Positions 1,039 to 18,160 of a DNA stretch of 64,000 bases are shown in pieces. The notes beneath the pieces were generated by a model. It searched no databases. It saw only the letters and a list, made by a program, of their open reading frames with translations, and had not been told where the DNA came from. The translations under genes and the position numbers were made by a program. Origin of the DNA: an uncultured Eubacteriales bacterium (GTDB lineage Bacteria; Acidobacteriota; Aminicenantia; Aminicenantales; Aminicenantaceae); NCBI GenBank assembly GCA_964624145.1, contig CAZUXT010000002.1, forward strand, positions 86,020 through 150,019, written 5' to 3'. Position 1 is the first letter of the stretch, and each line of letters starts with the position of its first letter.

Positions 1039-2781
1039 ATGAATGCTGGCAGAAGAACAGTGAGCTCACAAAAGAAATTCGCGAAGGATTTTTATGAGAT
1101 CCAGCGCCGACAATGGCAGAAAAGCCTTTTCTTGCTCCTTATCCTGTTTGTGTTCTATTTTTTTCTGGTAGGATTCGTGTCCTTTATTTTTATGATAAGC
1201 ATAGGACTGTTCGTGCCGGGGCTCTCTCTTTTTGCCGGAGATAACCTGAAAAATTTTTTTCTTGTAAACTTTTTCTTATCCATGGGGATAGCGGTTTTTC
1301 ATTTTTACGATGCCCGTTTCCACGGCGCTCGATTCATACGGAAAAGGCTGCTGGCTGAATCCCCGGATAAAGAGGACATCTACCACAAAAGGCTCATCAA
1401 CACCGTGGATGAGATGCGTCTTGCTGCGGGCCTTCCCAGGGTTACTCCTTATATTATTTCCGCTTTTGCGGTCAATTCCATGGCCCTTATGGAAGCGGAT
1501 AAAAGCCCCAGCATCATCGTAACCGAGGGGCTGCTGGCTGAGTTTACCAGAGACGAGCTTCAGGCTGTGATCGCTCAGGAATTGGCCCATATCATCCGGG
1601 GCGATACTTTTTATATCACTCTTGTGTGCTCACTGGCTAATTTTTTTGAGCGCCTGCGGGAGATGGCCGAGCCTCAGGAAAGGCCTCAGGGTCAGATCGG
1701 AGAGATCCAGGATTCAGGCGGCGGAAATCCTCTGGTCTATGCGGCGACTTCCCTGTCATCTGTTTTGATGCATCTTCTGAGCACGCTCGTCAGCCGTCAG
1801 AGAGAGCTCCTGGCAGATGCTACAGCCGTTGAACTAAACAGAAATCCCGCGGCCCTGGCCCGGGCTATCTACAAAGCCCATGTAAGCAACTCTTTTATAG
1901 GAGACTTCAGTCTTTCCTACAGCCCGCTTTTTTTGGTGCCTCCCGGATCAAAGAACATCACGGACGGGCTGTTCAGCCGGATCTTCAATTCACACCCCCC
2001 GCTTATGAAAAGAATCCGGCAGCTGGCGGACATGGTCCCGACATCTCCGGCAAGAATTATTGGTGCGGTCATGGAAACCAGAAAAAAGAGGGAAAAAGCC
2101 CGATTTGTTCTTCATTCTAAAGAAGAAAAAGAATCCGGAGGGCAAAAGATACCAGCCGCATCGGATGATATCCAGCCGGAAGAGGAGGCCGTATGGTCTG
2201 TCCGGAGCCCTAAAGGGAAATGGCAGGGGCCTTACACACTGGAACAGATCCTGTCCCTGCGTTTTTTTACCCTACGGATCAGGACAAAAAACATTCAGGA
2301 AGGCATCGAGGCCACGGCCGGAGAGTTCCCTCAGATCCGTACGGGCCTTCACAATCTGTACCATAAAAAGCCTGTCAATCCGAAAAGATACAACAAATGC
2401 CCGCGCTGCCGGACGCTGCTTAGAGACACCTTCTATGAAGGCGTGGCCTTGAAAATTTGCCCTTCCTGCCAGGGCAAGCTTGTTGATTCGGCTGTGATTG
2501 ACCGGATTATTGCCCGCAAAGAAGTCGCCTTCTCTGACCGTCTCCTTCAAAAAGCCGCTGACTTTAGAGAGAATTTTTTACAGAATCCGGCCGGAATCAG
2601 GAAGCTCAACAGGGAGAAATCTCAGGACATATACTGCCCCATATGCGGCTTGAAAATGCAGCCAAGGCCTTTCACGTATCAGTATATCATTCCTGTAGAT
2701 AAATGCTTTCTGTGCCATAAGACCTGGTTTGACACAGATGAGCTGGAGATCCTGCAGATCCTTATCGAAAAGCACTCTTAG
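1039..2781 (+). CDS. M48 (HtpX/Ste24-like) peptidase-fold membrane protein with C-terminal GYF-like module and two TFIIB-type zinc ribbons; first zinc-ligand His replaced by Gln
   Basis: ORF 1012-2781; I prefer ATG 1039 over TTG 1012. The N-terminus is TM-rich. M48 core: VIAQELAHIIRGD (CAG Gln codon at 1576-1578 where HExxH has His), SRQRELLADATAVEL (distal Glu region), NSHPPLMKRI. Downstream: WSVRSPKGKWQGPYTLEQIL (GYF-like), then CPRC...CPSC and CPIC...CFLC...WFDTDEL zinc ribbons. Confidence 0.75.
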   Translation: MNAGRRTVSSQKKFAKDFYEIQRRQWQKSLFLLLILFVFYFFLVGFVSFIFMISIGLFVPGLSLFAGDNLKNFFLVNFFLSMGIAVFHFYDARFHGARFIRKRLLAESPDKEDIYHKRLINTVDEMRLAAGLPRVTPYIISAFAVNSMALMEADKSPSIIVTEGLLAEFTRDELQAVIAQELAHIIRGDTFYITLVCSLANFFERLREMAEPQERPQGQIGEIQDSGGGNPLVYAATSLSSVLMHLLSTLVSRQRELLADATAVELNRNPAALARAIYKAHVSNSFIGDFSLSYSPLFLVPPGSKNITDGLFSRIFNSHPPLMKRIRQLADMVPTSPARIIGAVMETRKKREKARFVLHSKEEKESGGQKIPAASDDIQPEEEAVWSVRSPKGKWQGPYTLEQILSLRFFTLRIRTKNIQEGIEATAGEFPQIRTGLHNLYHKKPVNPKRYNKCPRCRTLLRDTFYEGVALKICPSCQGKLVDSAVIDRIIARKEVAFSDRLLQKAADFRENFLQNPAGIRKLNREKSQDIYCPICGLKMQPRPFTYQYIIPVDKCFLCHKTWFDTDELEILQILIEKHS

Positions 2782-2784
2782 TGA

Positions 2785-2880
2785 GGCATAGAATTCCAGA
2801 AGAAATGGCTCATAATAATGGAAAAGTACGCTGTAAAAAACTGTGCGTTCCAGATGACTTTGACGGTAGACCCTGCTCAT
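2785..2880 (-). pseudogene. 5' remnant (~32 codons) of an IS91-family (Y2/HUH rolling-circle) transposase gene
   Basis: The start of ORF 2578-2880 reads MSRVYRQSHLERTVFYSVLFHYYEPFLLEF. This parallels the N-terminus MAEIYRQRHPERTVFYREVF of the larger IS91-like ORF at 5919-6602 (about 50 nt of recognisable DNA similarity). The similarity is lost where the ORF runs into the 3' end of the M48-like gene (stop at 2781). Confidence 0.45.
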
Positions 2881-3051: not shown

Positions 3052-5043
3052 TTACTCGCTTCCTGTGCTTAGCAATTGGGTTATTTTATTAACAATCTCT
3101 TCTAAAGTATTTATTCTGTACCCTCTTTCATACACTATTTCAATAAATCGAGATGCCCCCTCGATATTTTTGCACGCACGATCAGTACGATCATAGCCTA
3201 GCTCATTGGCCACTTCTTGTTGGGTATTTCTTAAAACATCTTCACCTAAAGCTTCTTTGAATATTCCTTCCAAATTTTCCTTAAATACAGCCCAGGTTTC
3301 TTCGACTTTTGTTTCTGGAAAATCCTCAATATCAGAATTTGCTAACCGGAGATATCTATGATTTCGGATTCTCGCACCCACTCTTCCTTGTCCTTCAAGA
3401 TGCGAATCGCCGTCAAAAATAAAATATGTGGGTATAGATAATCCTCTAAAAATTAACACTGGGCGGTCTATATTGTTCTTTCCTCCCGCAGGAACGACTA
3501 CTATTCCTAGTGCGTGCCAGTTCTTTTCCATTATTTCTTGAAGCTTCCATAATGTGCAAACATCTGAGGGCCCTTCTACTACAACTACAGCATCCGCAAA
3601 AAATCCTTCATTTACTATCGTATTCATTACTGACATTGCTCGTGCCTTAAAGCTTTCTCTAGTGAAACCCGCCGGATCTGCATTATTAATTCTGGCAAGC
3701 TCGTTTGCTGCTTCCTCCAGGGAATAATTTCTAACTTTGCTTTGAAGAATGGGAGAGTCAGGGGACGTTTTTTTTCTTACCATACGAACTTGGTCAAATC
3801 GATGTAAATCTAAAAAATAAGGAGTATGAGTCGTGTAAATAATTTGATTGCTCGCACCAAGGCCAAATTCTGGTGATTCAGCAAGTTGGAGAAGTAGACC
3901 TGATAAATATCGACACCGAGAAGGGTGAAGATAAAGTTCTGGTTCTTCAAAGGCAATTATAAGGTCAGGCCCTTGGGATGAATCAACTTCAGTGAAAGGT
4001 GCTTCCTCCCCATCTTCTTCTGAAACAGCTTCTGTAGGAATTGTCATCGCAAGATGCTGAAGTAAAGTTACGATTAATGCTCTTTGGAGTCCGTGGCCTT
4101 TACGAGTGATTTCCCCTTCAAATCTATCCTCAACTAAGGTTGCTTTAGCAACTGGAAGTGGAATCTGAGGTGGTTTCACTTCATCCCAACCAAGGTTAAG
4201 CCGCGATCCAGGTGCAAATTTTTCAAGAGTTTGCGAAATAGAACTTCCGAGCTCTGGGAGTTCTGTTAGATTTTCAGAACTATAAATCTCTATCATTCGA
4301 TTTTCGAAATCTGTCTTGAACTCTCTAACATCTTCCCTAGCATTTATTTTCCTCAATACAATCATATCCAAAATTTGTAATATAGCACCCTTCTTACCAA
4401 TAACCTCTTCCTCCGCCTCTCTTACAGCAGGAATCAGAACAAATTTTGTAAAATTATCTAGCTTTCCCCCTCCAATATTTTTGGGGCCAAAAAACTGCTC
4501 CAATCGCTCTATTGGCTCCATCATATCTTGATTAAAGGCCTCATATTCAGCCATCAATTGTTCTACTTGATCTGCACTGCGAACAGTTCCTTCAAGTCCA
4601 TCTAATTCACCTCTCTCAACTAATTCTCTCCAGGCAGACACTCGTTCTCCTTTTCCAGGAAGACTTCTAATTTCAGCAAATTGAGGAATCTGTAATGCAG
4701 CCGCATAATAGCGTTGACTTATGCGATTTTCATCAAAACAAATCCGTTTAGTGACGATTAATCTGTCATCCCGAATGTATGTTTGAAATTCTTCTTTTTC
4801 ATCTTCACGCAGGTTGCCATAAGTAATGCGAATTTCAATAGCGCTACCAGTATCTCGGTTAAAAAAATCTTCTTCTGTAATAGGTGCTGCTATGTCATAG
4901 AAAACATCAATTGCATAAAGAAATGATGACTTGCCGGCTCCATTCCGTCCAACGATAGCAGTGAGACTATCACAGTCCAACGTTGATTCACGGATTGACC
5001 GAAAATTTTTGACTTCGATTCTTTCAATGATCAAATCGATCAC
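3052..5043 (-). CDS. OLD-family ATP-dependent endonuclease (ABC-type ATPase + TOPRIM)
   Basis: 663 aa. Walker A GRNGAGKSS (4924-4950), signature-like GHGLQR, Walker B/D-loop LIIAFEEPELYLHP, H-loop TTHTP. C-terminal TOPRIM: VVVVEGPSD (~3561-3590) and FIFDGDS (~3404-3424). The start is GTG 5043; a TTG at 5034 preceded by a GGGGGG run is an alternative. Confidence 0.85.
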   Translation of the reverse strand: MIDLIIERIEVKNFRSIRESTLDCDSLTAIVGRNGAGKSSFLYAIDVFYDIAAPITEEDFFNRDTGSAIEIRITYGNLREDEKEEFQTYIRDDRLIVTKRICFDENRISQRYYAAALQIPQFAEIRSLPGKGERVSAWRELVERGELDGLEGTVRSADQVEQLMAEYEAFNQDMMEPIERLEQFFGPKNIGGGKLDNFTKFVLIPAVREAEEEVIGKKGAILQILDMIVLRKINAREDVREFKTDFENRMIEIYSSENLTELPELGSSISQTLEKFAPGSRLNLGWDEVKPPQIPLPVAKATLVEDRFEGEITRKGHGLQRALIVTLLQHLAMTIPTEAVSEEDGEEAPFTEVDSSQGPDLIIAFEEPELYLHPSRCRYLSGLLLQLAESPEFGLGASNQIIYTTHTPYFLDLHRFDQVRMVRKKTSPDSPILQSKVRNYSLEEAANELARINNADPAGFTRESFKARAMSVMNTIVNEGFFADAVVVVEGPSDVCTLWKLQEIMEKNWHALGIVVVPAGGKNNIDRPVLIFRGLSIPTYFIFDGDSHLEGQGRVGARIRNHRYLRLANSDIEDFPETKVEETWAVFKENLEGIFKEALGEDVLRNTQQEVANELGYDRTDRACKNIEGASRFIEIVYERGYRINTLEEIVNKITQLLSTGSE

Positions 5044-5071
5044 CCCCCATATAATTTAAAAATATACTCTT

Positions 5072-5677
5072 TTAACATCTCTTAAGCGCGATATTCCAAG
5101 GAGGATTACAAGCCCATATCAGTCGCGCTTCAATTCGTTCAATATCTTCTTTATCTTCCATGATATGAAGCCAAAGGGATATGTCTTTTTTGTGTTCAGT
5201 TATTAGGGTATTCAAATGACAATTCGTTGCTTGACCATCCAAGTAACAATTTTTCGGATGGATTTTCCCATACCCTTGGTTAATTCTTTTTTTCATAGAG
5301 TCAGTGGAGCGACCTACATATGTAATTTGTTCAAATAATGTATAGATGTAAATTCCTTTTTTATTAAGAATGGATTCATCAGTTATAAAAAATTTCGAAT
5401 ATTCAGAATCACCGTATTTATTAAGAAAACGTTTATAATCGTCATCCCCACTTTGCTTAAGAAAGACAAGAAATTTTCCAAGTGGCCAATCTAGAAATTT
5501 TGAGTAATGGCGAAAAGTATCCTCTTTTAATTTTTCATACCTATAATGTTCTAATGTAGTTTTAACAGTCTTGTTATTCTTATCCTTAAACACATCTGTA
5601 TAAATACCGGCTTCGAACGATAGGGGGACTGCGACAAAGTCATATTCTAGTTCTTTTCCGTCACATAAAAACTCCAT
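5072..5677 (-). CDS. GIY-YIG nuclease-domain protein with unassigned ~100-aa N-terminal domain
   Basis: 201 aa. GIYIY-x-YVGRS (GIY-x9-YVG, 5309-5356), then R in KKRINQ, E in ERIEARLI and N in PPWN, the canonical GIY-YIG residue order. Same strand as the OLD gene and 28 nt upstream of it. There is no Shine-Dalgarno; the ATG lies 2 nt after the stop of a uORF. Confidence 0.75.
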   Translation of the reverse strand: MEFLCDGKELEYDFVAVPLSFEAGIYTDVFKDKNNKTVKTTLEHYRYEKLKEDTFRHYSKFLDWPLGKFLVFLKQSGDDDYKRFLNKYGDSEYSKFFITDESILNKKGIYIYTLFEQITYVGRSTDSMKKRINQGYGKIHPKNCYLDGQATNCHLNTLITEHKKDISLWLHIMEDKEDIERIEARLIWACNPPWNIALKRC

Positions 5678-5679
5678 AG

Positions 5680-5754
5680 CTAGATACTTATGTCAAATTC
5701 TGAAAGGATAAGAAATTCGTTTCTCTTTTGCTGCTGATTTTCACTCCATTTCAT
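5680..5754 (-). other. Chimeric 24-codon uORF (first ~9 codons identical to the permease-prefix ORF at 10033) ending 2 nt before the GIY-YIG start
   Basis: The reverse strand reads ATG AAA TGG AGT GAA AAT CAG CAG CAA..., giving MKWSENQQQKRNEFLILSEFDISI*. The stop TAG is at 5682-5680 and the GIY-YIG ATG at 5677. It lies inside repeat copy A. Confidence 0.4.
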
Positions 5755-5852
5755 CAAATTCCCATCCTCTAAGCGGCTTCATCACTCATCACATATGTAA
5801 AATAACGGACAAGTCAACAAGACACCCACAAAAAGAAGAGAATATCAGAAAA
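5728..5852 (-). repeat. Repeat copy A: duplicate of the permease-prefix promoter, 5'UTR and first codons
   Basis: Base-by-base comparison with 10007-10131 at a constant offset of 4279 shows no indels and 4 mismatches in 125 bp (5792, 5794, 5823, 5841). Weaker similarity continues down to ~5690 (matching ~9969). Confidence 0.9.
5788..5817 (-). promoter_or_regulatory. Putative sigma-70 promoter inside copy A (TTGACT-N18-TGTGAT), weakened -10 relative to copy B
   Basis: On the reverse strand, TTGACT is at 5817-5812 and the -10 hexamer TGTGAT at 5793-5788. Two of the four A/B mismatches fall in or next to this hexamer (copy B has TATGAT). Confidence 0.35.
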
Positions 5853-5918
5853 TCAGTGTAATAGTGCCACGCAAAGAATAGAGATTACCCTTGGCCCCTT
5901 AATTAGGGGATTAGGATA

Positions 5919-6602
5919 TCATATATATTCTGATAGTTCCTCAGCCGCCATAGAGAGCTGAGCCTGAGGAGGCGGGGGCCGGGCAGCCTTAAAGGTCAGA
6001 TTAAGGTGTTTGATGATCTTATCTATGATATTGTGATCTTCAATAAATGAGACAATGCGCATGGTTCCCCCGCATTTTGGACAGATGAGAGGATCAGCTT
6101 CATAGACTTTCTTTATCATCTCAGCCCAACCTTTGGAAGGTATAAAGGGATCTTCATCTTCAATAATAAGGGGACACAAAGGGTCGGATTCTTTTTTTCT
6201 CATCTTTCCCCTGTGGGCATTGGAATAAAGCCCATAGTAACGAATCGTGACCTGTCCCTTATCGGGAATATGGAAGGTGACTCTGGCAATAAACTCCAGA
6301 TAATCGATCCGCTCAAGCTCTGAGCTGTCTTTGCCGTATTGATAGCACACTTTACCTTCAGATTTATCAATAGATAGCCGCTTGAGCGAAAGGAGAGGTT
6401 TTATCATGTATTTGCCGACTCTTTCTGCTTCTGTCTTTGTTGTGATTCTGACCTTACTGTGCACATTGAAGCCTGTATGACGCCAGCTGAGGATCTTTTT
6501 CACGAGTTCCAGGTTGATGAGTCCTTCGCGCAGTAACATGGAAAACACCTCTCGATAGAAAACAGTGCGTTCCGGATGACGCTGACGATAAATCTCTGCC
6601 AC
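5919..6602 (-). mobile_element. IS91-family (Y2_Tnp-like) transposase gene, internally deleted and probably non-functional
   Basis: 227 aa where intact members are ~400 aa. The N-terminal ~20 aa (RQRHPERTVFYREVF) run directly into the C-terminal half: LSWRHTGFNVH, YMIKPLLSLKRL, EFIARVTFHIPDKGQVTIRYYGLYSNAHRGK, CPKCGGTMRIVSFIED. The zinc-binding and HUH regions are not visible. GTG start. Confidence 0.7.
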
Positions 6603-6859: not shown

Positions 6860-7207
6860 TTATGCTCGGAAGGCCTCTTTGACAACATCTTTCGTGATTC
6901 TGTTATTTTTTGCAACCTCTGCAGCAATCTCTAATGAATTGAGCGCACGACGCGCATCTCCATTGGCATAGTCGATCAGCATTTTTAGGGCAAGACTATC
7001 GATTTTAATGCGGCGATTTCCAAGTCCTCTTATTTTGTCGATCAAGGCCTCTTTGATAATGCGGACAAGGGTGTCTTCAGAAAGCGGATTGAGCAGGAGA
7101 ACCCGCATACGTGAAAGAAGTGGGGAGATGACTTCAAAGGATGGATTCTCGGTAGTGGAACCAAAGAGAATAATAGAGTGCTTGCATCCAATACCAGAGA
7201 CCTGCAC
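6860..7207 (-). pseudogene. rarA: Internal fragment of the replication-associated recombination protein A gene (RarA/MgsA AAA+ ATPase)
   Basis: SIILFGSTTENPSFEVISPLLSRMRVLLLNPLSEDTLVRIIKEAL...GDARRALNSLEIAAEV matches the central RarA block (ATTENPSFE...LLSR...GDARRALN). The Walker A N-terminus and the C-terminal domain are both missing. Confidence 0.8.
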
Positions 7208-7352
7208 GGAGAGGACTAAATTCCTTTACTTTAGCAGCATAAATTTCGTAAAAATCACCCATCGCAGAATAGCTGATGTCTCTATCGATAATGTGTTTAA
7301 GAATCCATCGTGCCGGTTTAGGTGGATTATAATTTTTACTAACCTCTTTCAT
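7178..7352 (-). pseudogene. Truncated permease-prefix (ADOP leader) fragment fused to the rarA fragment
   Basis: MKEVSKNYNPPKPARWILKHIIDRDISYSAMGDFYEIYAAKVKEFSPLRAGLWYWMQAL parallels the prefix ORF at 9797-10036 (LARWVLKRIIDRDISYAAMGDFDEIYAVKIKK...AAWYWLQVI). Similarity stops near ~7178, where rarA-like coding begins in another frame. No permease follows. Confidence 0.55.
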
Positions 7353-7417
7353 TTTGTCTATTTCTATCCTTACTTTTACACAATTGATAATTGACAATTG
7401 ATCAATGATCATTGATT

Positions 7418-9796: not shown

Positions 9797-10036
9797 TCAT
9801 TGTGCCGAATCCCGAACAAATGCGGGAAACGATTTGATTACCTGCAACCAGTACCACGCAGCCGCGTTTAAAGTACCGGACTTCTTAATCTTTACTGCAT
9901 AAATTTCATCAAAATCACCCATCGCCGCATAACTGATATCTCTATCGATAATTCGTTTAAGAACCCACCTTGCCAATTTATAAAAGATAGGAAATTGATT
10001 TTTTTGTTGCTGCTGATTTTCACTCCATTTCATCAA
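9797..10036 (-). CDS. Permease-prefix domain ORF (ADOP leader), separated from the permease by an in-frame TGA
   Basis: 79 aa, with LARWVLKRIIDRDISYAAMGDFDEIYA...WYWLQVIKSFPAFVRDSAQ*. The stop is TGA (9799-9797), followed by 3 codons (RYA) and then the permease ATG at 9787 in the same frame. It aligns without gaps to the fused version at 62136 (FLKNRTHRSAAMIKNY). Confidence 0.6.
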   Translation of the reverse strand: MMKWSENQQQQKNQFPIFYKLARWVLKRIIDRDISYAAMGDFDEIYAVKIKKSGTLNAAAWYWLQVIKSFPAFVRDSAQ

Positions 10037-10131
10037 ATTCCCATCCTCTAAGCGGCTTCATCACTCATCATAAATGTAAAATAACGGACAAGTCAACAAG
10101 AAACCCACAAAAAGAAGAGGATATCAGAAAA
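10007..10131 (-). repeat. Repeat copy B: native promoter, 5'UTR and first codons of the permease-prefix gene
   Basis: See copy A (5728-5852): 125 bp, 4 mismatches, no indels. Confidence 0.9.
10067..10096 (-). promoter_or_regulatory. Putative sigma-70 promoter TTGACT-N18-TATGAT for the prefix/permease genes
   Basis: On the reverse strand, TTGACT is at 10096-10091, followed by an 18-nt spacer and TATGAT at 10072-10067. A GAGGA Shine-Dalgarno precedes the ATG at 10033. Confidence 0.45.
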
Positions 10132-10233
10132 GCACTCTTCGCGGATTTTTGTTGACTGGGCATGTTTTCTGTGTGTACCATAAATAATGCAATTGATTGG
10201 AGGGTGGAATATGAAATATCAGGCGGAGTCGCT

Positions 10234-13200
10234 ATGATCAGCAGAAAATTTTCAGATAAAAAGGGTAATCTATGGTTATTTGGGATTCTGGCGATATGCC
10301 TATTCTGGATGCTTGTGTTGGTCTCCTGTAAAAAAGAGGAGAAAACTCCGGCAGAGAAACCAGGTGATAAGACCTTCATTGATCTGACCGGTGTGGAAGC
10401 ATCGGAAAAATGGCTGCAGATGCTAAATACCGAACCAGATCTCATATCCCGGGACACGGTTAAAAAAGCAGTAAAAATAGTAGCCATACATCCCCAAGGT
10501 CAGTTAAAGGAAGACTCTCAGAGTGATGAGCTCAGTATCACCTTTTCCCGCCCTGTGGCACCCCTGGAACCAGTGGCACCTGGCCGTGATCCCCTTATCC
10601 ACACCAATCCACCTCTCAAAGGGGAAGGGTATTTTAAAAACGCCGCCACTTATGCCTTTGTGGTAAAAGAGGATTTAAAACCGTCCACTACTTATCAGGT
10701 AGTCTTTGAAGGGTATGAGAGTCCCTTTGGTTTCCAGGTAAAAAAGCATCAATGGGAGTTTTCAACTCCCCTGATCAGTATCCTGAAGACAGTCCCCAGC
10801 CATAATAAAAAATGGTGTGTGCTGGGACAGCGTGTGCTGGTAAAGTTTTCCCAGCCAGTAAATCCCCTGGATATTAAACCCTATATTAAGGTCACTGTTG
10901 ACAACAAGGATTGGGAACATTTTCAGGTGCGTTATTCCACAGAAGAGGAGCGAAAGGAGCTTTTTTACTGGCAGGGTTATCGCAAGGATCCCAAAAAATT
11001 CATTACTGTTTTTCCCACTCTCGCCTATCCCCAGGCTGCCGATATCCGGGTCTCTTTTCTTAAGGGATTGACCGCCGCAGCCGGCAATCTTGGATTACCG
11101 AGAAACCAGGTGCTGGAGTTCCGGACCTTTGAGAAATTCATTGTTGAAAAAGTGCCGGAAGCTTTTAATCCGGACCAGGGTATTGAAGTTCATCTGTCCA
11201 ATCAGGTGCGGATAGCTGATTTTCTGGACCAGATCACCATTGATCCGGAGGTAAAGATCAACCGGGATTATTTTTATGGTAATGAAAAGTTCCGGATCAT
11301 GGGGGATTTCAAGCCGAATACCCGTTACATTGTCTCCATTCCCCATTCGATACAGGATGTGTTTGGAAACACTCTTCCCAGGGATTACCGGTTCACAGCG
11401 ATGAGCAAAGATTATACATCCTACCTTACCATTCCCACTGGGTCTCATTTTGTCCTGGAGAGCTATCTGACCAGAGCCCTTCCCATCCAGGTTCGGAATA
11501 TCAGAGAAACCGGGGTGCTTTATAAACGGCTTAAGAGTGAAGACTTGGCGGCCCTTGTCGATGGAGGCCGATTGGATACCGAACGCATCAATCCGGAGGA
11601 TTGCCAGGTCTATTCCTGGCAGATCCCGATCCATCATAACCAAAGCATGGTCCTGCCCTTCAAACTCGATAACATCGGGATAGCAGATCCTGGTGTATAT
11701 TATATTAAATTCAATCAGGCCACCAATTACTGGGGAAAACAGGGAGCCGTTTTTCAGCTGACCGACCAGGCCCTGGTCGCCAAATACAGTCCCACTCAAA
11801 TTTTTCTAACCGCCTTTAACCTGAAAAACGGCAAGCTTCAAAAACAACAAAAGTTCAATATCCTGGGAGAAAATTTCAGTGACCGGATCAAAAGCGGTGA
11901 GGATGGAGTGGCACTGCTGAAGCCCCGGGATAGTATTTTTCTAAGCCGGGACCTGCTTAAATTTAAAATTTATTCACCGGAGAGCGGAGCCTTTATTTGG
12001 GGTGAGAAGGATACCATGTTTGACATGTGGAATTTCCGCTATGATTACAATATAAATTATCGCTACTCTCCTCGTTCTTATTACCACCGGCTGCTGGTAT
12101 TCACGGATAAGGATCTTTACAAGGCTGGTCAGACCGTACGATTCAAGGGTATTTTCCGCCATTTAGTGAGTGGTGATCTGCAGATACCTGAGCTCGAGAG
12201 AATCGAAGGGGAAGTATACGATTCCTTTAATAATAAACTCGAGACCTTCACAGTTGATCTGTCTGGCTTTAAAGAGTACGGAACCTTTGCCCACCAGTTC
12301 CAGCTTCCCCGAAAGAGCCCCTCTGGTTTTTACCGGATCCAGCTGAAGATCACCCAACCCGGGCAGGATGAACCCTCTATGCAGAACCTGAATTTTTCAG
12401 TCCAGGAATACAGACCGGCAAAGTTTGAGGTGACGACCGCTTTTAACCAGACTCATGCCATTGCCGGGGAGTCCCTTTCTGGCCGCATAAAGGGAAGATA
12501 TCTTTTTGGTACGCCTATGAAAGAAGCCCACGGAGATTTCAGCCTGAGGATTAAAAACATTTACTTCACTCCTCCGGGTTGGAACAGATTCACTTTCGGT
12601 ACCGCTGAGTCCGCCACTGACCGGACTATTGTCCAGAAAAGCCTCGTTCTTGATGAAAAAGGCATCTTTAATTTTGAGCAGAAAGAATTCTCCTTTGACA
12701 CAAAAAATTCGGTTCGGATGAGCTTGTACGGCGAAATCCAGGACCAGGATAACAATCGGATCAGTTCCGGTTCCTCGATGGTGGTTCACCGGGGGGCTTA
12801 TTATATCGGGGTCCGAACCGGTTCTTATTTCTTTCAGAGTGGAAAACCGGGATCTGTCGAGATCATAACTGTGGACCCCTATGGGAAACAGGAAGGGGAA
12901 CACCGATTAAACATGCTCATCGAGCGGGTGGATTGGAAGTCTTATCAGAAAGAGGATGCATCGGGCAGTCTTCGGTGGTATTGGGAGCGAGAACGGCATC
13001 CTGTAACTGAAGAAGAAATAACGATCATGAACGGCCAGTTATCCAGGGATTTCACTTTTGACCAACCTGGATATTACGAGATCACCTTGACCGGCACAGA
13101 CCGTTTCGGCAACCAAATCACCACTACGGCCAATTTCTATGTCACTGGTGGGGGATACGTCTCATGGCGCATGGATGAAGGCAGGATAATTGATCTGGTG

Positions 13201-15930
13201 ACAGACAAAAAGGAATACCGAGAGGGCGAAACGGTTGAACTGCTGATAAAATCCCCTTTCAAAAAATCCACCGTCCTGATCACTGCCGAACGGGAAAAGG
13301 TCTTCTGGTATAAGACCTTTACCCTCAATGGCAATGCCGGTACCGTAAAAATACCGGTTCTTAGGGATTTTATGCCAAATATCTTTTTTAATGTTATTCT
13401 TTTGAAAGAGAGAACAGGAGTCCGGTGGGATGACTCGGGGAATGATATTGGGAAACCGGAGTTTTACGCCGGATATGCCGGTGTTAAAGTGGAGGCTGAT
13501 TCTCAGAAACTAAACATAGACATCTCGGCTGATAAAGATTCTTATGACCCGGGAGATGCGGTTACTCTCGACTTGACAGTCACCGACCATAATGGAGAAC
13601 CGATAAGTTCGGAACTATGCATCTCAGTGGTGGATAAAGGGGTACTGAACCTGGTAGGCTATGAGCTGCCGGATCCTTTCCGGTATTTTTATCAGGAGAG
13701 ATCTCTGGATGTGCGCACAGTGTCAACCCTGATGGATGTCCTGGGCCGACGGAAGTTTTCAGAAAAAGGTGAAGACCCCGGGGGGGGAGTAGGCGTTTCG
13801 ACTTTTGGTTCTGTAGTGGTGCGGAAGGATTTCAAAGAGAGTGCCTTCTATCAGGCTTTTGCCTATTCCAATAAACAGGGAGAGGCAACGATCCACTTCA
13901 CCCTTCCGGAAAACCTGACCACTTTCAAAGTGATGGTAGTTTCCGTGGACCGCCAACATCGCTTTGGAAGGGGAAAGACCGATCTGCTGGTAAAAAAGGA
14001 ACTGGTTCTCAAACCGGCCCTGCCGGATTTTCTGAGAGCGGGGGATAGCTTCCAGGGCGGTGTGACCGTCACCAATAACACTGACGAAGAGATGAACGTC
14101 ACCGTCCAGGCGGAAGTGTCAGCCATTCAGATTTCAGGTGAAAGGGCTGAGAAGAAGATTCGCCTGTCACCCTTTAAAACCGATTCGGTCTTGTTTGATT
14201 TCAAGGTTCCGGAAGGGAAAAAGATTCCCCGATTCACCTTTCGCGCCCGCAGTGATTCCTATAGCGATGGATATGAACAGTCCATTACCGTGAGGATGCC
14301 TCAATTCACGGAAACAGTGGCCACATCCGGGGAGGTGACCCGGCGCAAAGCCGAAGAGCTGATCACAGTGCCCACTGACAGCATCCGAGAATATGACAAC
14401 CTGAAAATCGCATGGTCTCCATCCATTTCCGGTGGAGTGGAAAAGAGTTTTCAATTCCTGGATGAATACCCCTACGAATGTCTGGAGCAGAAGATCTGCA
14501 GGCTCTTTCCCTTGCTGAAGGAAAAAAGTTATCTCACCCAGTTGGGCATCATAACCCAATCCTATGAAGACCGCCGTGAGCGGGTTGAAACATTTATCAA
14601 CCGAATTGAGGATTATCAGAATCCTGACGGGGGAGTCGGTTACTATCCGGATACCCGTCACAGCAGCTGGTTTTTAAGCACTTTTGCCATGGATTTTCTC
14701 CTGGATGCCCGGAAGGCGGGATATCAGGTAAGTTCGGAATTTTTAAATCCTTTACGAGAATATCTTACAAAGGTTTGTCAGAACAGTATTGAAAGCAGGT
14801 ATCCCTACAGTCTGAATTTGAGGCTATTTAACATGGCCTATGCCGCATATGTCCTGGCACGGGACGGGACCATTATGCAGGACACGGTCAATAATTTGTT
14901 TGAAATGAGGGAACGCCTCCCTCTGGAAGGAGCATCCTACCTTGTCAGGATATTTGACCTAACAGATGAACTGCCTGATTCCATGCAGGCCCTGCTGACC
15001 CGGATGCTGCTCAATAATATAAAAGAGGAACCCACTCGGACCCATTTTGAAAACCGCCCCGATCCTTTCTGGTGGACTGTCCATGGCTCTTCTCTGCGTA
15101 CCACCGCCCACATATTCGATACTCTGCTTCTGGTGTATCAGCGGTTCCCCATGGCTCCAAAAATTGCCCGCTGGCTCTTTGATACCCTCCGGGACAAACA
15201 ATATTTGAACACACAAGAACACCTGGCCATCCTCAGGGCCTTTGAAAAATACTTTGAAAGATACGAGCTGGAAGATCCGGACTACATAGCCCGTATTATT
15301 TTGGATAAGAAGGAAATGGTAAATGTTCAAGTCTCCGACCGGAGATTTTACCAGCTGGATACGTTTTCCCTGAAGGATTTTGATGCTGGAGAACAGATCA
15401 GGTTGAAACTTCAAAAGGAAGGCAAGGGAATCATGTATTACAATACCCGGCTGACCTACCGTCCAGCCGGGATTCTTTCTCCGGTAGACCGGGGATTCGC
15501 AATACGAAAGATTTTCTTTGACCAGGCAGGTCATCCAGTAGCCCCAAACCAGCTTAAAGCCGGAGAAAATTATATGGTGGAACTGAAGATCACCACTAAC
15601 AAAGAACGAAGTTTTGTAGTGGTCAACGACCCACTGCCGGCGGGATTTAAAGTGGTCAATCCCCGTTTCCTCACCCAGGCAAATCTGGCCGGCAGTAATA
15701 TGGAAGAAGGTGAAGCATTCAGATATTGGGGTGACTTTTATCACAGCCAGTATTATTTTGATCGGGTGGAACTGTTTGCTGACTTTCTTGCGGCGGGCAC
15801 CCATACCTGGAAATATCTGGTTATTGCCACCAACAGCGGAGAATACCAGCTGCCTGCAACTATGGTCTTACAGATGTACAACCCGGAGGTTTTTGGAAGA
15901 AGTGCAGATCAAAGGATTAAGATTAAATAA
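10234..15930 (+). CDS. Bacterial alpha-2-macroglobulin family lipoprotein (thioester-containing)
   Basis: Very long ORF (track 10162-15930). ATG 10234 follows AGGCGGAG and gives a lipoprotein signal ...LFWMLVLVSCKKEE. The CLEQ thioester motif in YPYECLEQK is at 14479-14490. It is followed by pbpC, the well-known A2M-PbpC gene pair. Confidence 0.9.
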   Translation: MISRKFSDKKGNLWLFGILAICLFWMLVLVSCKKEEKTPAEKPGDKTFIDLTGVEASEKWLQMLNTEPDLISRDTVKKAVKIVAIHPQGQLKEDSQSDELSITFSRPVAPLEPVAPGRDPLIHTNPPLKGEGYFKNAATYAFVVKEDLKPSTTYQVVFEGYESPFGFQVKKHQWEFSTPLISILKTVPSHNKKWCVLGQRVLVKFSQPVNPLDIKPYIKVTVDNKDWEHFQVRYSTEEERKELFYWQGYRKDPKKFITVFPTLAYPQAADIRVSFLKGLTAAAGNLGLPRNQVLEFRTFEKFIVEKVPEAFNPDQGIEVHLSNQVRIADFLDQITIDPEVKINRDYFYGNEKFRIMGDFKPNTRYIVSIPHSIQDVFGNTLPRDYRFTAMSKDYTSYLTIPTGSHFVLESYLTRALPIQVRNIRETGVLYKRLKSEDLAALVDGGRLDTERINPEDCQVYSWQIPIHHNQSMVLPFKLDNIGIADPGVYYIKFNQATNYWGKQGAVFQLTDQALVAKYSPTQIFLTAFNLKNGKLQKQQKFNILGENFSDRIKSGEDGVALLKPRDSIFLSRDLLKFKIYSPESGAFIWGEKDTMFDMWNFRYDYNINYRYSPRSYYHRLLVFTDKDLYKAGQTVRFKGIFRHLVSGDLQIPELERIEGEVYDSFNNKLETFTVDLSGFKEYGTFAHQFQLPRKSPSGFYRIQLKITQPGQDEPSMQNLNFSVQEYRPAKFEVTTAFNQTHAIAGESLSGRIKGRYLFGTPMKEAHGDFSLRIKNIYFTPPGWNRFTFGTAESATDRTIVQKSLVLDEKGIFNFEQKEFSFDTKNSVRMSLYGEIQDQDNNRISSGSSMVVHRGAYYIGVRTGSYFFQSGKPGSVEIITVDPYGKQEGEHRLNMLIERVDWKSYQKEDASGSLRWYWERERHPVTEEEITIMNGQLSRDFTFDQPGYYEITLTGTDRFGNQITTTANFYVTGGGYVSWRMDEGRIIDLVTDKKEYREGETVELLIKSPFKKSTVLITAEREKVFWYKTFTLNGNAGTVKIPVLRDFMPNIFFNVILLKERTGVRWDDSGNDIGKPEFYAGYAGVKVEADSQKLNIDISADKDSYDPGDAVTLDLTVTDHNGEPISSELCISVVDKGVLNLVGYELPDPFRYFYQERSLDVRTVSTLMDVLGRRKFSEKGEDPGGGVGVSTFGSVVVRKDFKESAFYQAFAYSNKQGEATIHFTLPENLTTFKVMVVSVDRQHRFGRGKTDLLVKKELVLKPALPDFLRAGDSFQGGVTVTNNTDEEMNVTVQAEVSAIQISGERAEKKIRLSPFKTDSVLFDFKVPEGKKIPRFTFRARSDSYSDGYEQSITVRMPQFTETVATSGEVTRRKAEELITVPTDSIREYDNLKIAWSPSISGGVEKSFQFLDEYPYECLEQKICRLFPLLKEKSYLTQLGIITQSYEDRRERVETFINRIEDYQNPDGGVGYYPDTRHSSWFLSTFAMDFLLDARKAGYQVSSEFLNPLREYLTKVCQNSIESRYPYSLNLRLFNMAYAAYVLARDGTIMQDTVNNLFEMRERLPLEGASYLVRIFDLTDELPDSMQALLTRMLLNNIKEEPTRTHFENRPDPFWWTVHGSSLRTTAHIFDTLLLVYQRFPMAPKIARWLFDTLRDKQYLNTQEHLAILRAFEKYFERYELEDPDYIARIILDKKEMVNVQVSDRRFYQLDTFSLKDFDAGEQIRLKLQKEGKGIMYYNTRLTYRPAGILSPVDRGFAIRKIFFDQAGHPVAPNQLKAGENYMVELKITTNKERSFVVVNDPLPAGFKVVNPRFLTQANLAGSNMEEGEAFRYWGDFYHSQYYFDRVELFADFLAAGTHTWKYLVIATNSGEYQLPATMVLQMYNPEVFGRSADQRIKIK

Positions 15931-18160
15931 AAAAAAGATTTTTCTGATCCTGTTGTCATTGGGAACAGCAGGGATGGTGGTGTACCTTGCGTGGTTCAAT
16001 CAATCCTGCCTTTCAGATAAGGAAGAATCCTTGCGATTTGTGGATCGCCGGGGGGAGCTACTGGGATTTCATCTGGTGAATCAGAAGCGTTACAGCGCTC
16101 ACTGCGGCCTTAGCCAGGTATCACCTCACTTTATTCGGGCAATTGTGCTGGTGGAAGACCGGGGATTCTACTCACATGAGGGGGTAAACCTGTCTTCCCT
16201 GACCCGGGCCCTTTTTCAGAATGTTCAGGAGGGAAGGGTGGTTTCGGGAGGATCAACCATCACCATGCAGCTGGCAAAACTGCTGTTAAATGCCAATCAA
16301 AAGAGAACCATTTTCCGGAAGCTGGAGGAAATTATATTCGCCTTGAAACTGGAACTGCACCTTCCCAAATCAAGGATTCTGGAAGAGTATATCAATCGTC
16401 TGCCCTTTGGGAACATGATATACGGCATTGGGCCGGCATCAGAATTTTATTTTGGCAAGGCCCCTGCGCAGCTATCTCTCAGCCAGGCTATTGAACTGGC
16501 TGTTATTCCAAAGGCTCCCACTACCTACAATCCTATCAAAAACAAAGATCAGTTAAAGGCAAGAAGAGACTGGATCCTGGATGAATTATACCGCCAGGGA
16601 TTTGTATCATCCCATGAATACCGGCGGGTGGCCAGTGAAGAGGTTCATTTTAATATCAGGGACTCCCTATTTGTGGCCCCTCATTTCATTGAGTTGATCA
16701 AGCACCGTCATGGGAACGACCTTTCTGATCACAAGAAAATATATACCACACTGGACAGGCATCTCCAGCTGAAGGTCCGGGGAATTGTCCGGGAACATCT
16801 GCAAAGGCTCCGATCGTATCATGTTCAGTCTGCTGCAGCAGTGGTGATTGATAACCGATCACATGAGTTGTTGGCCTACCTGGGTTCTCCTGATTATTTT
16901 AATGCTGAGAACAACGGATATGTTGATTATGCTATAGCACTTCGACAACCCGGGTCCACCCTGAAGCCTTTTGTTTACGGAGTGGCTTTAGAAGCAGGAT
17001 ATACTCCATCGTCCATTCTCCCGGATATCCAGTTCCCGGCCCGGGGCGGATTTTTTCCCCGGAATCATGATGGCATGGAACACGGCCCCTTGAGGTTGAG
17101 AACCTCCCTGGCCTGTTCCTACAACATTCCAGCCTTTTACCTGGCGATAAAACTGACACCCGACCGGATCCTGGAAAAACTCCAGTTGGCCGGTTTCTCG
17201 TATCTTGATAAGCCCGCGGGATTTTACGGAGAAGCCATTGCCTTGGGATCGGGAGAAGTGAGACTGCTGGACCTGGTAACAGCTTATTCCTGTCTGGCAA
17301 ACAAAGGAGTTCTTTATCAGCCGCGTCTGTTAAAAGAGTGGCCGGCAAGCGACAAGCGTCAGATATTTTCCCCCCAGTGTGCTTTTCTGCTATTTGACAT
17401 TTTATCAGATCCTGCTGCCCGGGCCGGCAGCTTCGGATTTTTCTCCTCCATGAACCTGCCTTTTCCCCTGGCGATAAAAACCGGTACCTCAAAGGGATTC
17501 AGGGATAAATGGGCAGTGGCTGTCAATTCCAAATATACAGTGGGAGTATGGCTGGGGAATCCAAGCGGCAAGAACATTTCACAGCAGGTGGTGGAAACAG
17601 GAAACAGTGCCACCATAGTCCGGGATATATTTCTGATCCTTCAGAAAAATTGGGAGCAGGGAGGGTTGCCGATACCTCCTGGTATTGTCCGGCGGGAGGT
17701 TTGTGCTCTCTCCGGAGAATTAGCTGGTCCATACTGCCGGGACCGGGTGGAGGAGTATTTTGAAGAAAAGAACCTGCCTGAAGGTCCCTGCTCCTATCAT
17801 GTAAAGACCGAAACAGGAATAAAAACGGTCTATCCTGAACTCTACCGCGAATGGTGGCAAAAGAATCAGCTGACCAAACAAACGCATCTTGGGGGCAGCC
17901 AGGAAGTTGAGATTGTATCCCCTCAGCAGGGGGATCGCTATTATATATCTAGAGCTCTTCCTCTGGAAAGTCAGCAGATTCGTTTCAAGGTCATGGGTGC
18001 AGCAAGCGGAGAGAAAATCACATACCACCTTAATAACCGGATTTACCGTATTCTCTCCTACCCCTGTTTCCCCCTATTCCAGCTGAAACCAGGGGAATAT
18101 CTGCTGGAAATAGAAATCGCGGGGGAATGCCGGGACCGAGTGTCCTTTGCAGTTCATTGA
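15902..18160 (+). CDS. pbpC: Penicillin-binding protein 1C (glycosyltransferase + transpeptidase)
   Basis: GT51 motifs: VLVEDRGFYSHEGVN, GGSTITMQLAK, RKLEE. Transpeptidase motifs: QPGSTLKPF, KTGTSKGFRD. I propose GTG 15902, before the N-terminal TM KKKIFLILLSLGTAGMVVYLAW. The track start at 15710 would overlap the A2M gene by 220 nt. Confidence 0.85.
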   Translation: MQIKGLRLNKKKIFLILLSLGTAGMVVYLAWFNQSCLSDKEESLRFVDRRGELLGFHLVNQKRYSAHCGLSQVSPHFIRAIVLVEDRGFYSHEGVNLSSLTRALFQNVQEGRVVSGGSTITMQLAKLLLNANQKRTIFRKLEEIIFALKLELHLPKSRILEEYINRLPFGNMIYGIGPASEFYFGKAPAQLSLSQAIELAVIPKAPTTYNPIKNKDQLKARRDWILDELYRQGFVSSHEYRRVASEEVHFNIRDSLFVAPHFIELIKHRHGNDLSDHKKIYTTLDRHLQLKVRGIVREHLQRLRSYHVQSAAAVVIDNRSHELLAYLGSPDYFNAENNGYVDYAIALRQPGSTLKPFVYGVALEAGYTPSSILPDIQFPARGGFFPRNHDGMEHGPLRLRTSLACSYNIPAFYLAIKLTPDRILEKLQLAGFSYLDKPAGFYGEAIALGSGEVRLLDLVTAYSCLANKGVLYQPRLLKEWPASDKRQIFSPQCAFLLFDILSDPAARAGSFGFFSSMNLPFPLAIKTGTSKGFRDKWAVAVNSKYTVGVWLGNPSGKNISQQVVETGNSATIVRDIFLILQKNWEQGGLPIPPGIVRREVCALSGELAGPYCRDRVEEYFEEKNLPEGPCSYHVKTETGIKTVYPELYREWWQKNQLTKQTHLGGSQEVEIVSPQQGDRYYISRALPLESQQIRFKVMGAASGEKITYHLNNRIYRILSYPCFPLFQLKPGEYLLEIEIAGECRDRVSFAVH

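Follow-up and report, generated by a model that had tools for sequence, protein, structure and literature searches.

Organization of the two-gene locus

Two adjacent genes in the window, which is the whole stretch of 64,000 nucleotides analysed here, were predicted to encode a GIY-YIG nuclease and an OLD-family ATPase/TOPRIM nuclease. The question raised by this locus was whether the two genes form a new two-part immune system, as a preliminary description of the DNA had proposed, or whether they are independent genes that have come to lie side by side. Both open reading frames proved to be real, on the same strand and 28 nt apart, as had been described (Table 1). A promoter and terminator scan gave nothing beyond shuffled expectation. 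Because no terminator-like or promoter-like site was found in the 28-nt spacer, the GIY-YIG gene (GIY gene) and the OLD gene are likely co-transcribed.

The same pair was present at locus L081, where the spacer was 17 nt in comparison with 28 nt here. The DNA homology common to the window and L081 was confined to a 2.6-kb block, the ends of which show how far the jointly inherited pair of genes extends. This block lies in unrelated flanks at L081, which bears out the earlier view of a compact unit that moves. The homology between the window and L092, an OLD locus without the GIY gene, began only at position 5061 (blastn).

Table 1. Coordinates of the two genes, their motifs and the flanking features in the window
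Feature	Position	Strand	Remarks
OLD-family ABC-ATPase/TOPRIM nuclease gene, 663 aa	3052..5043	(-)	GTG start
Walker A GRNGAGKSS	4924-4950	(-)	K38
Signature-like GHGLQR	4081-4098	(-)
Walker B/D-loop EEPELYLHP	3922-3948	(-)
H-loop TTHTP	3820-3834	(-)	H406
TOPRIM VVVVEGPSD	3562-3588	(-)	E490
TOPRIM FIFDGDS	3403-3423	(-)	D544xD546
Spacer between GIY and OLD genes, 28 nt	5044..5071	(-)
201-aa protein gene	5072..5677	(-)	N-terminal domain and C-terminal EndoII-like GIY-YIG domain (predicted)
KKRINQ	5276-5293	(-)	201-aa protein
ERIEARLI	5117-5140	(-)	201-aa protein
PPWN	5093-5104	(-)	201-aa protein
DNA homology block common with L081	3074..5702	(-)	83% nt identity, blastn
Duplicate of 9975-10134	5696..5855	(-)	91% identity; upstream region and first ~20 codons of resident 'permease-prefix' ORF
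Internally deleted IS91-family (Y2_Tnp) transposase fragment, upstream of cassette	5919..6602	(-)	PF04986, 7.4e-14
ORF with IS91 N-terminus-like remnant, downstream of cassette	2578..2880	(-)	by-eye likeness
RarA-type gene fragment	6860-7207

The 663-aa OLD-family protein

The 663-aa protein matched Pfam AAA_15 over residues 6-410 (2.8e-33) and PF20469 OLD-like_TOPRIM over residues 481-546 (2.9e-15), and its best PADLOC match was 'Old' (1.6e-49). The nearest solved structure was that of TsOLD (6p74, 1.7e-25), and this match took in the TOPRIM domain. [quoted passage not shown] All OLD catalytic residues, including E490, D544 and D546 as well as the ATPase motifs, were invariant in alignment A3. 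The same alignment showed that the OLD protein of the pair had lost no domain and undergone no catalytic change in comparison with its solo relatives. Judged from its sequence, the protein belongs to the OLD-family ATPase/TOPRIM nucleases, is intact and is of a Class 1-like type.

The 201-aa GIY-YIG protein

The 201-aa protein gave nothing significant in Pfam, NCBIfam or PADLOC; GIY_YIG_2 reached only E=0.33. However, the profile of the 201-aa family matched T4 EndoII (2wsh) over residues 106-198 (4.7e-5), and the protein matched phrog_1111 'endonuclease' (3e-4). The AF2 model had a pLDDT of 92. A Foldseek search with this model showed that the top 11 PDB matches were all GIY-YIG proteins and that the top BFVD matches were likewise GIY-YIG; the matches included 3mx1 and 3oqg, and the probability for the UvrC GIY-YIG domain was 1.00. 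Since the direct family models failed, the assignment was made on the family profile and the fold, by which the 201-aa protein is predicted to be a nuclease of the GIY-YIG superfamily with its domain at the C-terminus.

The catalytic columns G108, Y110, Y120, G122, R123, R131, E183 and N195 were invariant in 24 sequences (alignment A1), and the GIY protein of the pair keeps every catalytic residue found in solo family members. The GIY-x9-YVG string that had been read from the sequence is present, at 5312-5356 and not at 5309-5356, a slip of 3 nt. Both proteins appear to be intact nucleases of the superfamilies first named for them. The N-terminal ~100 aa (residues 1-100), to which no assignment had been given, matched no structure in either PDB or BFVD. 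A conserved H140/C144/C153/H154 cluster in the 201-aa protein may possibly be a Zn site.

Comparison with known systems

The earlier statement that the pair comes without a helicase, an RT or a split OLD was confirmed. Class 1 OLDs are single-gene systems by definition and can defend alone (PMC10568477, PMC12392090). The window OLD resembles the Class 1 proteins P2 Old, TsOLD (6P74) and Vc OLD in having the ABC ATPase and TOPRIM in one polypeptide and in having no helicase or RT partner, and its close relatives are solo. It differs in its length, which is 663 aa in comparison with 528 aa for TsOLD, with ~110 aa after the TOPRIM domain, and in the GIY-YIG nuclease gene that lies directly upstream in the window sublineage. 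The window OLD stood nearer to the Class 1 representatives than to those of Class 2, as the match to GajA was about 1e-7 and covered the P-loop only, in contrast with the TsOLD match given above, and PADLOC likewise gave GajA only 1.5e-23.

Gabija (Class 2, GajA and the GajB helicase) also combines two genes on the same strand with an OLD-type ATPase/TOPRIM protein, but its partner is a downstream UvrD-like helicase, whereas the partner in the window is an upstream GIY-YIG nuclease. Gabija was rejected because what lies 3' of 3052 is 170 nt of non-coding DNA, the IS91 remnant and an M48 peptidase gene in convergent orientation. Retron type I-B (Class 3 OLD), which has a neighbouring RT and an msr/msd ncRNA, was rejected because no RT domain was found in the flanking ORFs and no Rfam match in the window; the NCBIfam retron Eco8 effector model scored 44.6 bits against a cut-off of 250. 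PARIS (Class 4 OLD) was rejected because ATPase and TOPRIM lie within one 663-aa ORF, of which the AriA model covers residues 6-411 only. Septu (PtuA and the HNH protein PtuB) and PARIS (AriA and AriB) share with the pair an OLD-related ABC ATPase and a separate nuclease polypeptide, but the window ATPase has its own TOPRIM, its second nuclease is GIY-YIG and not HNH or DUF4435, and neither the OLD family nor the GIY family has the window pairing as a conserved feature.

Phage T4 EndoII nicks host DNA. EndoII (DenA, 2WSH) and the 201-aa protein share an EndoII-type GIY-YIG domain and an NPPWNIQ C-terminal motif. G122, R131 and N195 correspond to G49, R57 and N130 of EndoII, and E183 corresponds within one position to E118, the crystal being that of the E118A mutant (PMC2764454). 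However, EndoII is a single-domain phage enzyme of 136 aa without the H140/C144/C153/H154 cluster, whereas the window protein is cellular and carries ~100 additional N-terminal aa that are conserved. Membership of the EndoII family was rejected on the grounds that homology is limited to the C-terminal domain, that an extra N-terminal domain is present and that the 201-aa family is absent from the 50,697 phage records searched.

The type II restriction enzymes R.Eco29kI and R.Hpy188I and the single-gene defence systems PD-T4-3, PD-Lambda-1 and Uzume are similar, each being a small GIY-YIG nuclease to which a region for specificity is added. The type II restriction enzymes differ in that no methyltransferase adjoins the 201-aa gene, and type II restriction-modification was rejected because there is no methylase near the cassette and methylases make up only 2 of the 138 immediate neighbours of the family. 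The 201-aa partner had been described as unmatched to a named system, and indeed no PADLOC-DB v2 model recognised it at E<=0.1; PD-T4-3, PD-Lambda-1 and Uzume, models of which are presumably included in PADLOC-DB v2, were rejected on this result.

Distribution of the GIY and OLD genes

The GIY-like family was widespread, with 80 species-genome loci over many phyla; its members are ~200 aa long and fall into roughly 1,000 clusters. Neighbours were searched within 6 kb by tblastn (1e-5) and phmmer (1e-3). No OLD-like or ABC-ATPase gene was found at any of the 80 genome loci, and four more relatives (two closer metagenomic ones at 57-61% identity and two on viral contigs) were also solo. The immediate neighbours were heterogeneous. 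No conserved neighbour was detected among the 80 loci, the biggest neighbour cluster comprising 4 of them, and no recurrent methyltransferase partner was found among the immediate neighbours. The family had no match in 50,697 phage records, and its alignment gave 2 matches in 2.9 million viral contigs (IMG/VR), both without OLD. The fusions seen in extended family members (290-550 aa) were TPR, DUF7662 and weak PF01541 only and gave no functional clue. The GIY family normally stands alone.

The OLD protein was also found without the GIY gene. The metagenome contig scan with the single OLD protein gave at least 6 loci, and further loci came from exact-protein look-ups. Nine independent OLD relatives with 68-83% identity lacked the GIY gene: L092 (83%), L087 (75%), L101 and L093 (73% each), L094 (72%), L089 (70%), L090 and L095 (69% each) and L104 (68%). 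They include a sister that is 83-88% identical. No conserved partner of these nine loci was found, the downstream side included, and the OLD alignment found nothing in viral contigs. The clade of the OLD gene is large, with more than 2,160 proteins, highly conserved and horizontally mobile.

The GIY-bearing loci formed one clade in the OLD tree, and the same arrangement was found in independent assemblies and samples (L083-L086, L091, L081 and L082). The pair lineages available numbered three, which is too few to show independence statistically inside the clade. The dS values of the two genes were 0.81 and 0.70, and the dN/dS values were 0.20 and 0.10; both genes are under purifying selection. 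Because the synonymous divergence of the two genes is similar, the comparison points to a single origin of the GIY-OLD pairing. The preliminary description had suggested a two-gene defence cassette. The data did not support a conserved system of this kind, as the adjacency was limited to one young clade and the GIY gene was not syntenic with OLD genes at the 84 other loci surveyed. The ATP-gated dual-nuclease module envisaged in that description is hypothetical.

Interpretation of the pairing

Because each gene is solo everywhere else, stacked independent genes explain the locus more probably than a novel immune system of two parts does. We consider it probable that these are two autonomous nuclease genes that recently became neighbours, are probably co-transcribed and move together. 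The following account of what the OLD and GIY proteins do biochemically, of their part in defence and of their working independently is inferred. If the OLD protein behaves like P2 Old, TsOLD and VcOLD, its ABC-ATPase dimer would control a two-metal TOPRIM site at which DNA that is invading or replicating is nicked or degraded. The GIY protein would be a one-metal EndoII-like nuclease acting on DNA alone; it may be a methylase-independent restriction-like nuclease, possibly modification-dependent, or its gene may be a selfish one. The GIY gene would have arrived in a single young sublineage of OLD, at ~20 nt upstream of the ribosome-binding region of the OLD gene, and the 2.6-kb block would afterwards have been inherited and moved as a unit. 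Here the pair would probably be co-transcribed from a duplicated resident 5' region amid IS91 debris.

If the reading as independent genes is true, the OLD gene of this locus is a commonplace Class 1-type defence gene that has gained a neighbour by chance, and the locus serves mainly as a warning that close adjacency of two genes in one genome should not be equated with a system. By sequence and by analogy, the OLD gene would be of a known type, that of the single-gene anti-phage nucleases (Class 1-like). The 201-aa protein itself defines a widespread family without annotation or a Pfam model, in which a new N-terminal domain is predicted to precede a GIY-YIG domain of the EndoII-like kind.

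A rather unlikely explanation is that the pair is a lineage-specific two-component system, and so a new OLD context, in which the proteins act together. OLD might sense or nick in an ATP-dependent manner, with the GIY-YIG protein as the effector that acts on the second strand or on host DNA, or the N-terminal domain of the GIY protein might act as a sensor that licenses OLD. The shared strand, the tight 28- and 17-nt spacers without internal promoter or terminator signals, and the coincidence of the block limits with the two genes in differing flanks would all be expected of a two-component operon, as would the retention of both genes under purifying selection through a dS of ~0.75. Septu, with its PtuA and HNH PtuB, is a precedent for an OLD-type ATPase with a second nuclease (bioRxiv 10.1101/2024.10.26.620412). 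However, the GIY gene was unpaired in 84 other loci, the OLD relatives lacking it include the close sister, and neither protein differs from its solo relatives in domains (OLD) or catalytic residues (both). Co-inheritance of adjacent independent defence genes is, moreover, common.

It is likewise unlikely that the block represents a dual-nuclease defence system whose parts are functionally coupled and which has only just arisen, as a fifth OLD context seen soon after its origin. Separately, the stand-alone family may be a hitherto unrecognised restriction or defence nuclease that consists of one gene and needs no methylase. The pair clade offers a natural example of two nuclease genes combined in a single mobile unit, where the emergence of a composite defence operon could be tested.

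We regard as improbable that the GIY gene is a selfish, free-standing element of the homing-endonuclease kind, hitch-hiking beside OLD with no part in defence. GIY-YIG is a classic homing-endonuclease fold, the family is patchy over phyla at 40-60% identity without conserved neighbours, and in three Chloroflexota the GIY gene sits between genes of the conserved trp operon. The junction in the window is ~10-20 nt upstream of the OLD start, at the end of the homology to L092. However, known GIY-YIG homing enzymes carry the nuclease at the N-terminus and a DNA-binding domain at the C-terminus and occur in introns or intergenic phage DNA (PMC3664794), whereas the window nuclease domain is C-terminal and the family is cellular and nearly absent from the phage and viral records searched; a GIY-YIG homing endonuclease as such was rejected on these grounds. 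No target-site or flanking-repeat signature was found around the gene, and a selfish gene in decay would not usually be kept for long under purifying selection.

An assembly or annotation artefact, or a pseudogene in one of the partners, is hardly credible: the region is full of gene fragments and IS91 remnants, but the arrangement is identical across the independent assemblies, and both ORFs are full length with intact catalytic residues and dN/dS of 0.1-0.2.

Surroundings of the cassette

The IS91 and gene fragments reported around the cassette were recovered on both sides (Table 1). The upstream Y2_Tnp fragment covered PF04986 profile positions 85-179 only. The downstream ORF had no Pfam match; its first ~30 codons (near 2790-2880) look by eye like the N-terminus of an IS91 transposase (YRQSHLERTVFY, to be compared with YRQRHPERTVFY at 6602). 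The proposal of a mobile defence island was not supported, as the 60 kb around the cassette are ordinary chromosome in which remnants of IS91 occur.

The repeat search showed that the duplicate at 5696..5855 adjoins the cassette. The promoter of the cassette had been described as captured. The copy of the 5' region of the resident gene agrees with this, but no sigma-70-like site above chance was found in 5696-5855, and the segment is possibly a borrowed promoter. The cassette had also been called AT-richer than its flanks. Its GC content was 0.380 in comparison with 0.443 for the window, within the lowest 3.3% of 2.6-kb windows, but that of the adjoining resident permease gene was even lower (0.365).

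An uncharacterised GIY-YIG family and a Class 1-type OLD nuclease

The pair consists of two ORFs on one strand with 28 nt between them, as the preliminary description had it. The 201-aa protein was unrecognised by every Pfam, NCBIfam and PADLOC model; it scored weakly with GIY_YIG_2 (E=0.33) and matched phrog_1111 'endonuclease' at 3e-4. The earlier GIY-YIG call was right, because a profile match, the predicted fold and the Foldseek matches all supported it. The family-alignment profile matched T4 endonuclease II (EndoII, 2wsh; 4.7e-5, residues 106-198). An AlphaFold2 model built from this alignment (pLDDT 92, pTM 0.84) had only GIY-YIG nucleases as its best 11 PDB matches, among them the UvrC N-terminal domain (probability 1.00), R.Hpy188I and R.Eco29kI, and the viral structure library returned GIY-YIG proteins only, including 'Endonuclease II'. 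Every motif quoted for this protein was present; the GIY...YVG string occupies 5312-5356, so the start first given, 5309, was 3 nt off.

In a 24-sequence family alignment, G108, Y110, Y120, G122, R123, R131, E183 and N195 were invariant. G122, R131, E183 and N195 correspond to G49, R57, E118 and N130 of EndoII, a mapping corrected for a 7-residue tag carried by the PDB chain and in which E183/E118 is good to one position, the crystal being the E118A mutant. R57 and E118 were shown to be important for EndoII catalysis (PMC2764454). The terminal NPPWNIQ motif is also common to both proteins. However, an H140/C144/C153/H154 cluster conserved inside the GIY-YIG domain of the family is absent from the aligned stretch of EndoII; it may be a zinc site. 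The N-terminal ~100 residues were highly conserved, with, for example, an invariant KNNK[TS] motif, and had no structural match in the PDB or the viral library. A word-indexed search matched >700 proteins, mostly ~200 aa and 50-60% identical, and an exhaustive search gave 1,009 clusters at 50% identity. The protein belongs to an uncharacterised, widespread family of the GIY-YIG superfamily without a Pfam model.

All OLD motifs described for the 663-aa protein were found at exactly the coordinates reported. Pfam detected AAA_15 over residues 6-410 (2.8e-33) and OLD-like_TOPRIM over residues 481-546 (2.9e-15), and K38, H406, E490 and D544/D546 were invariant in an alignment of 16 relatives. The top PADLOC model was 'Old' (1.6e-49), far above GajA (~1e-23) and AriA, which covered the ATPase part only. 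The nearest solved structure by sequence was the Class 1 OLD of Thermus scotoductus (6p74; 1.7e-25), with TOPRIM included in the match, and GajA structures matched the P-loop region alone (~1e-7). Both its homology and the way its relatives behave assign the gene to the Class 1 kind as a new member.

Features of the window and of the loci compared
Feature	Position	Strand	Remarks
GIY-YIG protein ORF, 201 aa	5072..5677	-	family profile, AlphaFold2 fold
OLD-family nuclease ORF, 663 aa	3052..5043	-	Pfam, PADLOC, structure-sequence match
160-nt duplicate, 91%	5696-5855, copy of 9975-10134		direct repeat, upstream of cassette
IS91 (Y2_Tnp) fragment	5919-6602	-	internally deleted, upstream of cassette
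IS91-like N-terminal remnant, ~30 codons	2578-2880	-	downstream of cassette
RarA/MgsA-type ATPase fragment, 115-aa ORF	6860-7207	-	only C-terminal AAA_assoc_2/lid part matched
Alpha-2-macroglobulin gene (1,922 aa), then PBP1C-type transglycosylase/transpeptidase gene	10162-18160	+	
GIY-like genes in trp operons	L041:4010-4588, L048:6001-6558, L062:6001-6552		
OLD loci without GIY gene			identity: L092 83%, L087 75%, L101 and L093 73%, L094 72%, L089 70%, L090 and L095 69%, L104 68%

Distribution of the two families

The proposal of a conserved two-gene system failed the synteny test outside one shallow clade. Loci of 80 GIY family members (40-60% identity) were taken from one-genome-per-species contigs of Chloroflexota, Proteobacteria, Firmicutes, Bacteroidota, Planctomycetota, Acidobacteriota, Patescibacteria and other phyla. 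Relatives of the window OLD lay <=6 kb from the GIY gene in 0/80 (tblastn 1e-5, phmmer 1e-3), at thresholds loose enough to catch other OLD- or SMC-type ATPases too. When all neighbouring ORFs were clustered, no conserved neighbour emerged, the largest cross-locus cluster comprising 4 loci. The 138 immediate neighbours were heterogeneous, with housekeeping examples (TrpB-type PALP, NUDIX, fumarase, PheT), a defence or mobile minority (2 methylases, 2 HNH, McrBC, BstXI, Cas3, SspA, a portal protein and a T4SS coupling protein) and no recurring methyltransferase partner. The next-nearest metagenomic relatives, P0003 (57%) and P0015 (61%), were also alone. The family had 0 matches in 50,697 phage records, two in IMG/VR, both without OLD, and four distant, domain-only matches in plasmids, labelled 'GIY-YIG nuclease family protein'. 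In three Anaerolineae-type Chloroflexota of different families, the stand-alone GIY-like gene lies within a trp operon and is co-oriented with it (trpD-trpC-trpF-(~210-aa gene)-GIY-trpB), a position that suggests targeted insertion or else long vertical retention.

The OLD clade was both very large (2,160 proteins found with an E<=1e-20 cut-off) and tightly conserved, its best 120 members being ~665 aa long and 67-86% identical. Source names included Methanophagales archaeon, Spirochaetales, WOR-3 and Dehalococcoidia; this spread over archaea and several bacterial phyla points to wide horizontal transfer. A profile search found a GIY-like ORF in 0/9 independent OLD loci. Their neighbours on both sides were all different, several loci being surrounded by RM genes, integrases, PIN or Schlafen-type genes, and they conform to the Class 1 pattern, in which one gene stands without a constant partner (PMC10568477, PMC12392090). 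In L087 and L092, DNA homology between contexts begins just 18-30 nt before the start codon, so OLD by itself acts like a very compact unit that is transferred widely. A small homologous gene of ~172-185 aa occurred near OLD in L093 (3454-3972) and L094 (8163-8726); it is not a fixed partner, since it lies 2 kb upstream in one locus and just downstream in the other. From the distribution of both families it follows that neither depends on the other.

Origin of the pair

The pair was found with identical proteins in other samples of the window's own lineage (L083-L086), in a different metagenome (L091/L088, 95-96% nt), and in L081/L082, with GIY at 73% and OLD at 86% identity, a 17-nt spacer, and flanks (Yip1 upstream, no IS91) unrelated to those of the window. 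The window and L081 are homologous at the DNA level over 5702-3074, exactly both genes plus ~25 nt upstream, and homology with the GIY-less L092 starts just at 5061, ~18 nt ahead of the OLD start. Between the window and L081, dN/dS was 0.20 for GIY (dS 0.81) and 0.10 for OLD (dS 0.70). Both genes are under purifying selection, and their similar dS indicates that the ancestor shared by the window and L081 already had them together. An NJ tree of OLD proteins grouped the GIY-bearing loci in one clade, with L092 as sister. Given that the L081 OLD is closer to that of L092 (88%) than to that of the window (86%), L092 may have lost a GIY gene; with or without such a loss, the pairing is limited to one shallow clade.

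On the most economical account, which we consider probable, a stand-alone GIY-YIG nuclease gene came to lie directly upstream of a Class 1-type OLD gene in some recent ancestor; the two would since have been passed on and mobilised together as a block, probably sharing one transcript. Lineage-specific functional coupling of the two would give the same close spacing, shared mobility and purifying selection on both genes, the expected look of a young operonic system, but it seems rather unlikely, as each family mostly occurs without the other and the pairing is so restricted. That the GIY gene is a selfish, homing-type element is quite improbable: its patchy distribution and its insertion between trpF and trpB in the three Chloroflexota favour this, whereas its domain order is the opposite of that in known GIY-YIG homing enzymes (PMC3664794), it is nearly absent from phages, and purifying selection has acted on it for a long time. 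The presence of the pair in independent assemblies rules out an artefact of assembly or annotation.

In the literature, OLD stands alone (Class 1) or forms part of Gabija, retron I-B or PARIS, and OLD-related ATPases also occur in Septu, Menshen, AbiL and Rst_Old_Tin (PMC10568477; PMC12392090; bioRxiv 10.1101/2024.10.26.620412). Because none of these has a GIY-YIG partner, unlike the window pair, the combination is indeed unnamed. Adjacency without a name does not amount to a system; the remaining value lies in an unannotated nuclease family and a possible nascent composite operon.

Surroundings of the cassette

The cassette, described as AT-richer, had a GC content of 0.380 (whole window, 0.443), which puts it among the lowest 3.3% of 2.6-kb windows, but the adjoining resident MacB-type permease gene is at 0.365. 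The supposed defence island was not borne out: the cassette is an isolated insertion, and the remaining window is ordinary chromosome (alpha-2-macroglobulin and PBP1C-type gene, P-type ATPase, GH97, hybrid sensor kinase), with no Rfam matches in the window.

The original of the 160-nt duplicate covers the 5' region of a small 'permease-prefix' ORF together with ~20 of its codons, and in the copy the cassette truncates this ORF after ~20 codons. With this resident 5' region upstream, a captured promoter is plausible yet unproven, because no sigma-70-like promoter exceeded shuffled expectation; neither did intrinsic terminators, and none of either lay between the two genes. A second direct repeat (72%) joins 7176-7320 and 9836-9980. 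The repeats derive from the 5' region and body of the 'permease-prefix' ORFs 7134-7412 and 9797-10036, which stand ahead of MacB/FtsX permease genes.

In the upstream IS91 remnant, the N-terminal ~20 aa are fused to Y2_Tnp profile positions 85-179. Both IS91-family remnants, either side of the cassette, open with a similar YRQxHxERTVFY motif, and no DNA repeat >=30 nt joins them. The truncated RarA/MgsA-type fragment adjoins an IS91 remnant. Downstream, the cassette is followed by 170 nt of non-coding DNA, the IS91-like remnant and a convergent M48 peptidase gene. The pairing of alpha-2-macroglobulin with PBP1C is known in bacteria; the two ORFs as listed here overlap at 15710-15930, probably due to start-codon choice.
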